Assembly: GCA_036170655.1 (NCBI GenBank)
Contig: JAVHPP010000063.1
Location: 1 to 44,028, forward strand
Direction: 5' to 3'
DNA length: 44,028 bases
From: Candidatus Zixiibacteriota bacterium
GTDB taxonomy: Bacteria > Zixibacteria > MSB-5A5 > WJJR01
Shown: piece by piece, positions 545 to 4,583 of the stretch
How positions within the stretch are numbered: position 1 is the stretch's first letter
How the letters are laid out: each line of letters begins with the position of its first letter
Program-made: the position numbers and the translations under genes
The notes under the pieces: model-generated
Database searches by the model: none
What the model was told of the DNA's origin: nothing
Seen by the model: the letters and a program-made list of their open reading frames with translations, nothing else

Positions 545-621
545 CGCGGGGTGGAGCAGCCTGGTAGCTCGTCGGGCTCATAACCCGAAGGTCCTGGGTT
601 CAAATCCCAGCCCCGCTACCA
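545..621 (+). tRNA. tRNA-fMet (initiator, anticodon CAT)
   Basis: CGCGGGGTGGAGCAGCCTGGTAGCTCGTCGGGCTCATAACCCGAAGGTCCTGGGTTCAAATCCCAGCCCCGCTACCA: 77 nt cloverleaf, unpaired C1, three consecutive G-C pairs in the anticodon stem, encoded CCA. Confidence 0.97.
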
Positions 622-627
622 AGCTTA

Positions 628-667
628 GCCCGCTGAAGTCCAACGACTTCGGCGGGTTTTTGTTTTT
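628..667 (+). terminator. Rho-independent terminator after tRNA-fMet
   Basis: GCCCGCTGAAGTC-CAAC-GACTTCGGCGGGT followed by a T-tract. Confidence 0.85.
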
Positions 668-691
668 GCGGGATACCCTCAGAAACCGGAT

Positions 692-712
692 TTTCTATCA
701 GTTTTCTAACAA
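692..712 (+). repeat. Tandem arm-type repeats (TTTCTA[A/T]CA[A/G]), island 1 left end
   Basis: TTTCTATCAG (692-701) and TTTCTAACAA (703-712), 11-bp period. The same pair recurs at 3350-3370 and 3604-3624. Confidence 0.6.
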
Positions 713-865
713 ACGTGTTGAAAACGCGAACGCACGTGCTTCATTCCCATTCTTGTGCACGATGAAGTTCAACGACTTGCGCTGAGCGACGACGGAGAAT
801 TGGCATGACCTTCGGGCGTCTTGGGGCTGAGAACCCGACGGTCAAGGACGCGAGAAGAAACCACA

Positions 866-1210
866 ATGGCATTCAGTGATGAAGAAATCGCGCGATACAG
901 TGAGCTTGCTTCGGCTCTCTGTGAACGCCGACACCCCGTTCACGTTCACCACCAAGTCTGGATGGGATTCAAGATTGAAGGCCAGAGCATCACGCTGATT
1001 GAGTATCGGGTGCATTGGAAGGACAAAACGAAGACGACGGCTCACCCGATTGCAAAGACCGTTTTCAATCGCAGGTCGGGTGAGTGGAAGATCTATTGGA
1101 TGCGAGCAAGTCTGAAATGGTGGGCGTATGAGCCGTGCCCGACAGTCTCAACCTTCGAAGAGTTTCTTGAAGAAGTGGATCGAGATGAGTGTGCGTGCTT
1201 CTTTGGCTAA
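866..1210 (+). CDS. DUF3024-family protein (copy 1)
   Basis: MAFSDEEI...PIAK..FNR..GEWKIYWMRASLKW..YEP....FLEEVDRDECACFFG matches the DUF3024 pattern. Start chosen by homology with copy 2. Confidence 0.8.
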   Translation: MAFSDEEIARYSELASALCERRHPVHVHHQVWMGFKIEGQSITLIEYRVHWKDKTKTTAHPIAKTVFNRRSGEWKIYWMRASLKWWAYEPCPTVSTFEEFLEEVDRDECACFFG

Positions 1211-1797
1211 CTTCCGGTTCTCGCCAAAGTCATGTACGCGGCATATGCCGTACATCTTGCCAAGGACTGCCAGAATTCCAGTTCATTCTGAGACACGTTG
1301 AACTCGGATAGATTCTCGTTGGGATTTTCTCCTTTGCGTGCCCAGAAGACCAGGCCATCGAAATCGGAGTTGTAGTCCCAATTCCCGTGAGCGATAGCAT
1401 TTCGAAAGGCCCGAACCGGATTATCTGTGAGGAATCGGCAACAGAGATTCAATGTCGAACCAGTCGGCGAATTCTTCCTAAGAACTCTGAAACACGATTC
1501 TCCCAGATAAACGAAGCACACGTAATTCTGTACAATTACCTGCGCTCGCGTTGTTGCGGGCGATGATCCATTCGCTCTGATCTCATCCATAAACGCTTGG
1601 AATGCCGTCACCTCGTCCAGTCGCCGCCGGAGCGGCACTGTGGAGGAAGGCAAGATTCGCCCTTGAACGTCAGGGGGCAGCGCTGCCACGTCGCCGGAGA
1701 TCGAGGTTGCAAGGGAGTTGCTCGCCGCAATTGAGATTCCGAGGTCGTCACGAAGGCGTGTTGCCCAACGGTGCATTTGCTTATCCAGATGTGTCAT
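1207..1797 (-). CDS. Hypothetical protein with HEPN-like RxxxxH motif
   Basis: 196 aa ORF, helical-looking, contains FRNAIAHGNW; lies in island cargo. Confidence 0.55.
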   Translation of the reverse strand: MTHLDKQMHRWATRLRDDLGISIAASNSLATSISGDVAALPPDVQGRILPSSTVPLRRRLDEVTAFQAFMDEIRANGSSPATTRAQVIVQNYVCFVYLGESCFRVLRKNSPTGSTLNLCCRFLTDNPVRAFRNAIAHGNWDYNSDFDGLVFWARKGENPNENLSEFNVSQNELEFWQSLARCTAYAAYMTLARTGS

Positions 1798-1827
1798 CGA
1801 TCAACATCAACTCCAGTCCAAAACTGC

Positions 1828-2555
1828 TTACATGAATTTCCTTCGCTTGAAGGCTGCAACATCCTCGGCCGTCAACTCAAACCACTCTCCGTTCTTCCGC
1901 CGTGCGCTAAACCGATCGTGCCAGTACTTCTCGATACCGGCCGGGTCATCGGTCTTGATCGAGTGCACTGACTTCGCCGCCTCGGGAAGTTGAATCGCGA
2001 GTTCACGTTCTCGACGTCCGATGGCGTTAGTACGTCCGATCTTGTAGAATCGGCCAGACTTCAGTAAGTAGACGTACCCCAGCGTATCTTCTCGTGGCGT
2101 CCGCGCGATTTCTTGATCGGTCGGAATCTCGGTTTGAGAGAAAGTCTCGTCGCAGATCTTAACGACGTCTTCAAATCCACCGCGGTTCACACAGAAGTTG
2201 CGTAATGCTGACACTCGACTCTGCTTGTTGCCGAACTTTGCGAGTGTACTGTGCCATGGGAACCCTTTGTCAGTTCGGGCTCGCAATTTGATTTCAGTCA
2301 CGACGGGAAAGTGACCGAGCCCACGTACGAAGAGTGCGAGTTTTTCCAGAACTTCGTTGTCCGCGCGCGGGCCTTGCAAACGGTTTGGCGAGAATCCAGC
2401 GTCCTTTAGCGCATCTCCCCAGCGCGGCCAGTGTCTCAGCACGTCGTTAAGTGTAATTCCTGTTTCCGCCTCGAAGCGTGCCGTGCCAAGCGGCTTCCCT
2501 TTGTGTCTGCCGCTGTTCTTCGAATCTCCGCGAGGATGTGTGTTTTTGAATTCAT
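1828..2555 (-). pseudogene. GIY-YIG (T5orf172/Mug113-like) nuclease with N-terminal repeat domain, frameshifted
   Basis: C-terminus GYVYLLKSGRFYKIGRT...IEKYWHDRF...GEWF. The ATG at 2555 reads MNSKTHILAEIRRTAAD, then stops; the adjacent frame continues KGKPLGTARFEAETGI...HWPRWGDAL. This implies a 1-bp loss near 2498-2506. Confidence 0.7.
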
Positions 2556-2583
2556 GATTCCCCCCCGCCCCGGACGAGGAAGT

Positions 2584-2913
2584 TTAGGATGTCGCCCGAG
2601 CTCTGTCCCGGATAAGAACTAGCCTCACTTCGACCCGGCGGTCCAATGCCGCTGCAATCCTCTGCAACATCGAGAGCGAATGCCCTCGATAATCCGAATC
2701 CTCCAGTTGGCATATTACAGACGCGGTTGTCCCCACGCGGCTTGCGAGTTCTCGTTGGGTGAGTCCGGCCTTTGTCCTGAGATTGTAGATTGCCTGCGCG
2801 ATCTCGATATTGGCGCGCTCCAGTTCCAATTGTGCGAGAGCATTGGCATCGGAGCCAATATATCGGTCGTGAAGGTACTTCATTGTTTTGGATTTCGGTT
2901 TTCTGGTGGCCAT
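2584..2913 (-). CDS. XRE-type HTH antitoxin (HigA-like)
   Basis: IAQAIYNLRTKAGLTQRELASRVGTTASVICQLE...SLSMLQRIAAAL HTH; starts 1 nt after the toxin stop. Confidence 0.85.
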   Translation of the reverse strand: MATRKPKSKTMKYLHDRYIGSDANALAQLELERANIEIAQAIYNLRTKAGLTQRELASRVGTTASVICQLEDSDYRGHSLSMLQRIAAALDRRVEVRLVLIRDRARATS

Positions 2914-2914
2914 G

Positions 2915-3370: not shown

Positions 3371-3402
3371 AACATGCCAAAGGGTTATAAGAAACCGGAA
3401 AT

Positions 3403-3460
3403 CACCAGACAGGGCAATCCCGGCTAAGCTCTTGCCGGAATTGCCCTTTGGTGTCTGGTG
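3403..3460. repeat. Long imperfect inverted repeat at island right end
   Basis: CACCAGAC-AGGGCAAT-CCCGGC / GCCGGA-ATTGCCCT-ttggt-GTCTGGTG; a homologous structure lies at about 4449-4497. Confidence 0.65.
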
Positions 3461-3486
3461 CTGTCTGCTGGTTTGCAGACCGAACT

Positions 3487-3539
3487 GGCTCATAACCCGA
3501 AGGTCCTGGGTTCAAATCCCAGCCCCGCTACCAAGCTTA
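3487..3539 (+). repeat. att site: duplicated 3' half of tRNA-fMet (junction of island 1 and island 2)
   Basis: 53/53 identical to 575-627; the 5' half of the tRNA is absent. Confidence 0.92.
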
Positions 3540-3578
3540 ACTCCCTGAAGTGGAAACACTTCGGGGAGTTTGTTTTTT
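3539..3578 (+). terminator. Rho-independent terminator (island 2 left end)
   Basis: AACTCCCTGAAGTG-GAAA-CACTTCGGGGAGTT followed by a T-tract; compensatory changes relative to 628-667. Confidence 0.8.
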
Positions 3579-3777
3579 GGGGAATTATCTTCAGAGACCG
3601 GATTTTCTAACAGTTTTCTAACAAACGTGTTGGAAACTCGCCCCCATTTGCGCCATTCTCGATTTTGCGCACAATGAGGTTAAACGACTTACGTGAAGCT
3701 GATCTCGGGAATTGAGGTGGCCGTCGCGCTTTTTCGGGTCGAGAACCCGAAGGTCAAAGATGCGAGAAGGAACCGCA

Positions 3778-4122
3778 GTGGCATTCAGTGATGAAGAAAT
3801 CGCGCGGTACAGCGCCATTGCCTCTGCCTTTTGTGAGCGTAAGGTCCCGGTTCACGTTCATCACCAGGTCTGGATCGGATTCAAGATTAGAGGACAAAGC
3901 ATCGCGTTGATCGAATATCGAGTGCATTGGAAGGTCGAGACAAACACCACCGAACACCCAATCGCCCAGACGACCTACAACAGGAAGACGGAGGAGTGGC
4001 GGCTCTACTGGATGCGGGCGGACCTGAAATGGCACGGGTATCAGCCGTGTCCCTCAACCGACACATTCGAGAAGTTTCTGGAGGAAATGGACCTGGATGC
4101 GTGTGGGTGCTTCTTCGGTTGA
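3778..4122 (+). CDS. DUF3024-family protein (copy 2)
   Basis: GTG start; 114 aa colinear with copy 1, about 72% identical by hand count (82/114). Confidence 0.8.
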   Translation: MAFSDEEIARYSAIASAFCERKVPVHVHHQVWIGFKIRGQSIALIEYRVHWKVETNTTEHPIAQTTYNRKTEEWRLYWMRADLKWHGYQPCPSTDTFEKFLEEMDLDACGCFFG

Positions 4123-4278
4123 TGGTCAGACCTGAAACGGCTTGGGTCTTGATACCGTTTTGGTCTTGATACCGCGTAATTCAGTCTTGAGTAAACTGTC
4201 GCGAGCCGTAGTTTATTTAATAGAGGACTCATCCTTCTCCAGGGAGAATTTCTGATAAGACGTCTGAGGACTTCCTAT

Positions 4279-4335
4279 TCAACGGAGGTATCTCGAGGTG
4301 TTCCTCAGGTAGAGGACAAGATCAACCCGTGGCAC
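4279..4335 (-). pseudogene. 5' remnant of the RelE/HigB-like toxin
   Basis: GTG-started MPRVDLVLY... versus MPAIDLILF... in island 1, with the same GGATGAGTGCCA start context and operator; homology ends after about 9 codons. Confidence 0.6.
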
Positions 4336-4348
4336 TCATCCCCCAGTC

Positions 4349-4368
4349 CGTTCGTAATATTACGAACG
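4349..4368. promoter_or_regulatory. Perfect 20-bp palindrome (second copy of the TA operator)
   Basis: CGTTCGTAATATTACGAACG. Confidence 0.65.
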
Positions 4369-4531
4369 CATTCCAGCATCTGTTTGATCCCTCCTTTATG
4401 GTACTTTTCCAACAAACACGTCAGAACGTCAGAAATAAACCCAAAATCGCCAAGTCGGGCAACCCGGGCTATGCTCTCGCCGGAATTGCCCTTTGGCGCC
4501 TCGTGTTGTATTCTGGGTTGATGTCTGGGTC

Positions 4532-4583
4532 GGCCCATCATACCCAACCCGTACGACGAGGGGGAATCTCGGCCCCGCTGTCA
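4532..4583 (+). repeat. Degenerate tRNA-fMet 3' fragment (outermost att)
   Basis: AACCCGTACGACGAGGGGGAATCTCGGCCCCGCTGTCA aligns to AACCCGAAGGTCCTGGGTTCAAATCCCAGCCCCGCTACCA and sits where the right-end homology predicts. Confidence 0.55.

Follow-up and report, generated by a model that had tools for sequence, protein, structure and literature searches.

Integrase-less units of the cis-mobilizable type stacked behind tRNA-fMet in Zixibacteria

Introduction

Cis-mobilizable elements (CIMEs) are the closest described counterparts of the locus studied here, a pair of small units without an integrase gene that stand in tandem behind a tRNA-fMet gene of a Candidatus Zixiibacteriota bacterium. The units lie near the start of the stretch of 44,028 nucleotides that was analysed (contig JAVHPP010000063.1 of assembly GCA_036170655.1; hereafter the window). 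The definition of CIMEs, their sizes (1.2–13 kb) and their distal decay are given for Streptococcus in PMC5704250 and PMC7563491, the second of which also describes gene-less microCIMEs of 130–220 bp. As in these accounts, our units derive by deletion from an integrative and mobilizable element (IME), carry no recombination or transfer genes and have kept attachment (att) sites; they are also comparable in size (1–13 kb with cargo), in being stacked at one target gene and in having the most decayed members in distal position. The differences, as far as these two reports describe the Streptococcus elements, are that up to six right ends occur on one contig here compared to two or three elements in the S. 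salivarius stacks, that lineages of ends recur across families with different cargo, that core-type sites are conserved inside the units, and that many units adjoin the tRNA without a helper in the genome.

Other systems share some of these traits. In Dehalococcoides, islands are arranged in tandem at one RNA gene, ssrA, and 15 of them, which lack the integration module, were suggested to be CIMEs (PMC3146451); that module is described as encoding a serine recombinase and the target is tmRNA, whereas a tyrosine integrase and the anticodon loop of tRNA-fMet are involved here. The parent element presented below resembles IME_class_8 (PMC7563491) in its PF13814 Replic_Relax and VirD4/TrwB-like proteins; it differs from that class, as described, in that the end of its tyrosine integrase gene overlaps the arm-type sites, the terminator and the tRNA T-arm. 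The tycheposon islands of Prochlorococcus (10.1101/2020.12.28.424599) are similar in that transient integrase-bearing elements leave captured material distal to a tRNA; these leftovers are portrayed as having no clear boundaries, whereas every one of our units is bounded by a defined P-type arm and, in many cases, by a dedicated left end as well. A tycheposon has its own lineage-specific, inward-facing integrase gene and a replication module; our units have no integrase and the parental integrase gene points outward, to the tRNA.

Integrons are arrays of small gene units, the newest of which is proximal, and their attI sites have accessory repeats. The present arrays are likewise made of small units, and their extra core-type sites near the proximal site recall the attI repeats. 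In contrast to integrons, they have double-stranded sites of the arm and integration host factor (IHF) type, multi-gene units in both orientations and no resident integrase: no IntI gene lies at the locus, and an IntI-like fragment is found on another contig. Rfam returned nothing resembling attC (no attC model was run), and the genes of unit 1 abut or overlap with no room between them.

Results

Two tandem units keep the end of a parental integrase gene

As the preliminary description had it, two units lie back to back behind tRNA-fMet and neither encodes an integrase: the open reading frames (ORFs) and Pfam searches yielded no integrase ORF inside unit 1 (2,912 bp from core to core) or unit 2 (about 1,045 bp). 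ARAGORN predicts a single tRNA-Met(CAT), at 545–621, in which positions 1:72 are unpaired and the anticodon stem has three G-C pairs; we take these to be initiator hallmarks and hence call it tRNA-fMet. Its 3′ half is repeated at 3487–3533 (47/47 identical), and a decayed copy is found at about 4531–4583. The left ends of the two units are 76% identical over 634 nt and the right ends 74% over 213 nt. The features of the ends are as follows.

545–621, + strand: tRNA-fMet(CAT), the integration target, its 3′ half presumably supplied by unit 1 (ARAGORN, Rfam)
577–593, + strand: attL core of unit 1, a 7-bp anticodon-loop overlap plus a 10-bp core half-site (tRNA homology starts at the anticodon loop in aligned attR copies)
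603–725, − strand: 3′-terminal ~40 codons of the cognate integrase gene, in overlap with the T-arm, the terminator and the arms (tblastn, 54–66% identity to the C-termini of five relatives' integrases)
627–658, + strand: intrinsic terminator with an IHF-like site in the loop region (motif at 641–649)
693–723, + strand: left arm-type sites, a direct pair at 693 and 704 and an inverted copy at 716, with offsets as in integrase-bearing elements
3345–3488, + strand: right (P-type) arm of unit 1, an arm pair at 3351 and 3362 and inverted repeats at 3404 and 3452 around an IHF-like site at 3425 (alignment of 19 ends, profile)
3487–3533, + strand: joint between units 1 and 2, overlap 3489–3495 plus tRNA 3′ half, 47/47 (alignment)
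3515–3646, − strand: C-terminal integrase remnant of unit 2 (tblastn, 59–76%)
3539–3570, with arms at 3605, 3616 and (inverted) 3628: terminator and arms of the unit 2 left end
4389–4583, + strand: right end of unit 2, in which both the arm and the attR tRNA fragment are decayed (profile score 82; 126 for unit 1)

The stretch running from the T-loop through the terminator and the arms is the 3′ end of an integrase gene. When 61 related genomes were searched at the DNA level, matches to the left end extended beyond the tRNA, and in five genomes (G011, G025, G039, G053 and G059) the gene that lies antisense directly behind the tRNA encodes a tyrosine integrase (PF00589 and PF14659). Its frame reads through the arms and the terminator and has its stop codon in the tRNA T-loop; next come an HTH_17 excisionase and, where the contig is long enough, a VirD4/TrwB-like protein, often with Replic_Relax. 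A larger element with the same arms and an integrase, which the preliminary description had proposed to look for, is thus present at tRNA-fMet in relatives such as G011. Searching with the G011 integrase (E≤1e-40) gave matches in 33 of the 285 class genomes, 32 matches at at least 54% identity and two at 32–33%; of the former, 29 adjoin tRNA-fMet and the remaining 3 a tRNA-fMet fragment. The best PDB matches of the parental integrase are 6EN0, 6EMY and 6EMZ, which we take to be Tn1549 Int. Within 603–725, and in the parents (L028:1947-3245 and others), the DNA that codes for the end of the integrase also provides the terminator, an IHF-like site and part of the tRNA.

Three complete parents, from three genera, measure 26.7–26.8 kb (L092-L095, L109-L110). 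A fixed size for the parent is ruled out by the 30.7-kb element of G225 and by longer ones, and the agreement among the three is probably a coincidence. In G120 a parent stands proximal and an integrase-less unit distal, in tandem. At G267:C6, two identical right ends lie inverted 15 kb apart (L104:1728-1882 and 16681-16835), each next to a distant integrase (~28% identity); either these integrases form another subfamily or the assembly has duplicated the region.

No cognate integrase was matched by the G011 search in the genome to which the window belongs (G000; assembly 100% complete, 184 contigs). PF00589 has three matches there, which we read, from sequence and general knowledge, as presumably XerD, XerC and an integron-integrase fragment. 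PF14659 gave no match under a control that worked; PF13814 gave none either, with a control that also failed to match. On contig C81 of the same genome (L026:59-1653), the C-terminal fragment of an integron integrase is followed by a 390-aa accessory-type ORF near the contig end.

The att ends are conserved at fixed spacing

The left arms sit 118 and 129 nt from the core, exactly the offsets of the integrase-bearing parents. Both terminators have a 14-pair stem and are the first two of the 12 matches as listed. The 10-mer TTTCTAACAA has three copies in the 2.6-Mb genome, every one at this locus. The paired repeats first described do exist at 693/704, 3351/3362 and 3605/3616, but the pairs are imperfect and a single degenerate arm copy (4407) is left at the right end of unit 2. 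Similarly, complete att arms hold for unit 1, of which both ends are intact (profile scores 91 and 126), but not for unit 2, which has an intact attL and a decayed attR (82).

Nineteen right ends align at fixed spacing: the arm pair is followed by inverted repeats that flank an IHF-like motif (present in 14 of the 19) and then by the anticodon-loop core; IHF-like motifs were judged against what we take to be the IHF consensus. The long hairpin of the preliminary description corresponds to the inverted repeats at 3404 and 3452. As an RNA structure it was rejected: the consensus fold computed for these 19 sequences comprises 6 pairs (−0.88 kcal/mol) and the Rfam match is at chance level. Because there is almost no consensus RNA fold, these repeats are best read as predicted DNA binding sites around the IHF-like site.

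Many relatives carry these ends around other cargo

A profile built from the 19 aligned right ends was run over 151 class genomes and matched 56 of them, 19 of the matches being its own training sequences. Several genomes have 3–7 copies (6–7 in G132, G105 and G078), and stacking in tandem is borne out by six right ends within 14 kb on G105:C4 and five within 19 kb on G132:C10. The 51 units that could be delimited have a median length of 2.9 kb (range 1.0–20.6 kb, with boundaries set by eye from profile matches). Of 15 arrays, 10 (this locus included) have a proximal right end that outscores the distal one, in agreement with the proposal that the newest unit is proximal and that decay is distal. 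The same ends around different cargo, a check suggested at the outset, were seen in many relatives.

The cargo of the window, by annotation, is as follows.

866–1210, + strand: DUF3024 (PADLOC candidate PDC-S43), unit 1 (Pfam 6.5e-31; PADLOC 9e-37)
1207–1797, − strand: 196-aa protein, likely an HEPN-type nuclease (ESM Atlas features 0.94 to pEK499_p136 HEPN clusters; no Pfam match)
1828–2556, − strand: protein with a C-terminal T5orf172/MUG113 (GIY-YIG-like) domain (Pfam)
2584–2913, − strand: XRE-family antitoxin, HigA-like (Pfam HTH_3)
2915–3289, − strand: RelE/Gp49-like toxin, HigB-like (Pfam Gp49 1e-20; NCBIfam)
3305–3322, no strand: perfect 18-bp palindrome, likely the toxin-antitoxin (TA) operator, also before higB in G003, G007 and L164
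3778–4122, + strand: DUF3024 (PDC-S43) of unit 2, with a GTG start (Pfam, PADLOC)
4279–4335, − strand: higB stub, ~10 higB-like codons fused to unrelated DNA (sequence comparison)
4350–4367, no strand: perfect copy of the TA operator palindrome in unit 2 (sequence)

The 196-aa protein has an RxxxxH-type motif, which we take as a sign of HEPN. The palindrome goes with higB and not with the att sites. Cargo on the opposite strand, ascribed to both units, is found in unit 1, but in unit 2 it amounts to the ~10 higB-like codons, and the middle of unit 2 (4123–4310) had no match in the fetched loci or in the genome.

Unit 1 carries defence-like cargo by annotation. Defence as a trait of the family, which had been suggested, is not supported. 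From 42 units, 108 ORFs were picked and 104 were submitted to PADLOC, four HigBA proteins that were already identified being left out. There were 17 matches at E≤1e-15. Six of them concern generic domains (methyltransferase, ABC transporter parts, ArsR-type HTH, kinase); the other 11, in five units, are to AbiE, Septu-like, ATPase and type I methylase proteins. Together with two HigBA units, defence or TA genes are thus present in 7 of 42 units. Other cargo includes RND efflux, ACR3, CbiMQO with NikR, catalase-peroxidase with PerR, cytochromes and hydrolases. We read the family as a general carrier of cargo, in which unit 1 happens to be defence-like.

DUF3024 marks one mosaic sub-lineage

The DUF3024 proteins of the two units are 71% identical, in line with the ~72% first reported, and their genes differ mainly at synonymous sites (dS 1.59, dN/dS 0.12); because of this, their divergence appears to be old and under selection. 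A family headed by DUF3024, as initially put forward, did not emerge: the gene heads just four known units, which form one sub-lineage, and also occurs alone. A scan of genome contigs gave three loci, the third a weak 20-residue match, and a metagenome scan gave ten, three of them at 86–91%. Two metagenome loci, L164 and L165, are integrase-less DUF3024-headed units at the same tRNA, with the same HD gene upstream, the same left end and the P-type arm; their cargo is HNH plus HigBA (L164) and a PadR-type pair (L165). The two Nitrospira-type loci among the three from genome contigs show no tRNA or arms.

L165 is a mosaic. Its left non-coding part is closer to unit 2 (89% identity) than to unit 1 (71%); its DUF3024 gene resembles that of unit 2 over the first 76 nt (72/76) and that of unit 1 at nt 152–266 (112/114); its right part is 77% identical to the second unit of G007 and is followed by a unit-1-type terminator, in reversed order relative to our locus. 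Together with the units of G003 and G007, which carry the TA pair without DUF3024, this points to modules being swapped among units and to a variable unit order.

DUF3024 genes without att ends (G007:C29, L042:9483-10064; L166:6001-6582) lie between carbamate kinase-like and CCA-adding-like genes, and a fragment of the T5orf172 gene of unit 1 comes next. The model of DUF3024 (pLDDT 83) has a best VIA-align Z of 6.9 and no Foldseek match at E≤0.001, and no function was deduced from it; no published work on DUF3024 function was found in the literature.

A second, internal core-type site

The integrase-less units keep a second, internal core-type site at fixed spacing, which is new here and is not seen in the three complete parents. 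In the non-coding part of ~140 bp between the left arms and DUF3024, the inverted arm is accompanied by an IHF-like site and by two half-sites of the core type.

767–843, + strand: internal att-like site of unit 1, with IHF-like site 767–779, inverted half-site 807–816 and forward half-site 834–843
3676–3755, + strand: internal att-like site of unit 2, with exact forward half-site 3746–3755 and a degenerate inverted half

The inverted core half-site GACCTTCGGG starts at 807 and the forward half-site follows 17 nt further on (834; 3746 in unit 2). This layout is identical in L164, L165 and G010, and L164 and L165 retain the IHF-like motif and both half-sites; a related layout occurs in family f5. 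We found no published account of the internal site or of these elements in Zixibacteria, in a survey that left subscription papers mostly uncovered, and supplements may list some.

A rather unlikely reading of this site is an integron-like platform, in which an integrase provided in trans would let each unit form a circle of its own and the internal site would be a dedicated loading point for cargo on a fixed chassis. Exact half-sites are indeed concentrated near the left core: 11 within 60–300 nt of it (52 units, 12.5 kb; in 9 units), compared to 2 in 228 kb of interior and 0 in the 80 kb of the three parents, a window that was chosen after examples had been seen. Over 285 genomes, an arm-to-half-site pattern gave 28 matches: 17 at ordinary right ends, nine of this left-end type and two unclear (reversed control, 10). 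A tRNA-to-half-site pattern gave 22 matches in 17 genomes, 20 of them tRNA-anchored copies of a second end type in 15 genomes and six families (reversed control, 0); within up to 1.5 kb downstream of these 20 copies no cognate integrase was found, two of the contigs ending within 200 nt. In 11 of the 20, an inverted half-site lies 60–71 nt further on; mean identity is ~0.6 before it and ~0.3 past the next 7 nt, the identity of the half-site itself being given by construction. Of the 55 pairs among these copies 36 are alignable, and 25 of those stop within 16 nt of the site. Two tandem units of G234 are identical up to the half-site and have different cargo beyond it, and the homology of G003 to unit 1 stops at the inverted half-site.

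Such a break in homology fits an integrase joining cargo at the internal site, and would also suit gene-less microCIMEs ahead of captured DNA, since microCIMEs of the published lengths (PMC7563491) would look similar. Moreover, 11 of the 36 pairs continue for 84–143 nt past the site, the cargo of the DUF3024 lineage switches downstream of DUF3024 and not at the internal site, the crossover of L165 lies inside DUF3024, and neither a resident integrase nor a common promoter was found.

Discussion

The units of the window are of a known kind, CIMEs, probably stacked by accretion. They descend from an IME by deletion, as witnessed by the C-terminal integrase remnant, the identical arm offsets and the parental gene set; having lost their integrase, they have kept their ends, vary in cargo, form tandem stacks and are mosaic. 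Neither has an integrase and relaxase of its own, as an IME would; functional genes for an integrase, a relaxase or a coupling protein are lacking, and we therefore place them among CIMEs. We consider it probable, from comparison of sequences, that these derivatives of a larger tRNA-fMet IME move only with integrase and excisionase supplied by a parent.

The scenario that we favour would run as follows. A single loss of int, xis and the transfer genes in an ancestor would have given rise to the DUF3024-headed lineage; one founder is suggested because both units and the two metagenome units share the truncation point and the sequence that follows. The main route to new hosts would be accretion: a visiting parent would integrate proximally, excise together with the adjacent unit or units, transfer and later leave alone. 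Every arrival would restore the tRNA and push older units outward, where decay would tend to occur, and cargo would be reshuffled by homologous recombination between stacked units. Less certainly, the same integrase may also reshuffle cargo at the conserved internal site. Mobilisation in trans as free circles, as first proposed, would explain the stacks no better than such mobilisation in cis, which accounts for them equally well.

Several points weigh against this scenario. No origin of transfer (oriT) was identified. The dS between the DUF3024 copies is of the same order as that of a host gene between G000 and G003 (1.97); it agrees with the earlier view that the units are no recent duplication, but an old duplication in place would be compatible with the divergence alone. 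The gradient of decay is absent in 5 of the 15 arrays, and the DUF3024 tree has no supported branch. Finally, a good share of the relatives' units is probably inert, because in many of them the left arms are gone or the tRNA fragments are broken.

A quite improbable alternative is that the units are immobile remnants of an old decayed island, duplicated or stranded in place, whose ends are kept only through the tRNA terminator and the TA operon. The decayed right end and attR of unit 2, the lack of a helper found in G000, a dS near host-gene level and the G003 unit, which has lost its right arm, are in its favour. Against it, G002 and G003 of the same genus bear different single units, G006, G009 and G012 of the same family have no right-end match, the unit order is reversed in L165, the displaced tRNA half of unit 2 is still 47/47, and arms and internal half-sites are conserved in units without integrase. 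That the assembly joins two strains with one unit each is scarcely credible: the genome is a metagenome assembly and the tRNA half is an exact repeat, but that repeat is ~53 bp, four runs of one study, one of them flagged as the possible source, contain 0.92–0.99 of the sampled words of 400–4800 (another run, X5, with a share of 0.09, was left out), unit 2 decays coherently at its distal side, and tandem stacks occur in many independent genomes.

The internal site gives some support to the analogy with an integron array drawn in the preliminary description, which we put forward as conjecture. Tentatively, Zixibacteria may have a tRNA-anchored form of gene capture, in which an integrase-less chassis with conserved ends of its own loads or swaps cargo at its second site and the integrase of a visiting IME builds and shuffles the arrays. 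If true, an integron-like function would have been achieved by means of arm sites of the lambda/Tn916 type, with no integrase resident at the locus. The usual view of CIMEs is that they are products of decay; should the internal site be in use, the units would be evolved, reusable vehicles for gene capture, and if not, they would represent an ordinary but well-populated case of accreted CIMEs in a phylum that is unstudied. Island finders such as Islander are described as discarding candidates without an integrase gene (PMC4383910), and such arrays would therefore have been missed, although the right end occurs in more than a third of the class genomes searched.

Additional observations

The T-stem of tRNA-fMet (594–612 region of the window, compared to relatives) varies between genomes by compensatory changes, and in G059 the T-stem of the attR copy is a hybrid with mismatched strands; the elements may exchange 3′ halves of the tRNA from host to host. 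Small GC-rich palindromes (CCGCC...GGCGG type) or short hairpin inserts repeatedly break tRNA-fMet copies and displaced fragments (L043:17589-17749, L039:2818-2885, L055:2776-2870, L056:5829-5910, L063:13236-13300, L164:2200-2260), and the apparently full tRNA of G002 is also interrupted by one; they are possibly elements resembling repetitive extragenic palindromes (REP-like) that target these sites. A short GIY-YIG gene often lies directly behind the tRNA, ahead of another broken tRNA copy (L164:1912-2214, L189, L039, L081).

A cysteine-synthase-like (PALP) gene is found 3′ of the array in L027, L043, L044, L057 and L165, in two cases with a zinc dehydrogenase; in the window (4531–4678) it is missing and an M16 peptidase comes directly after the array. 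Further downstream, at 13834–21875, inspection of the ORFs revealed what we take to be an operon for a formate-hydrogenlyase-like membrane complex with an HTH-PTS EIIA regulator.

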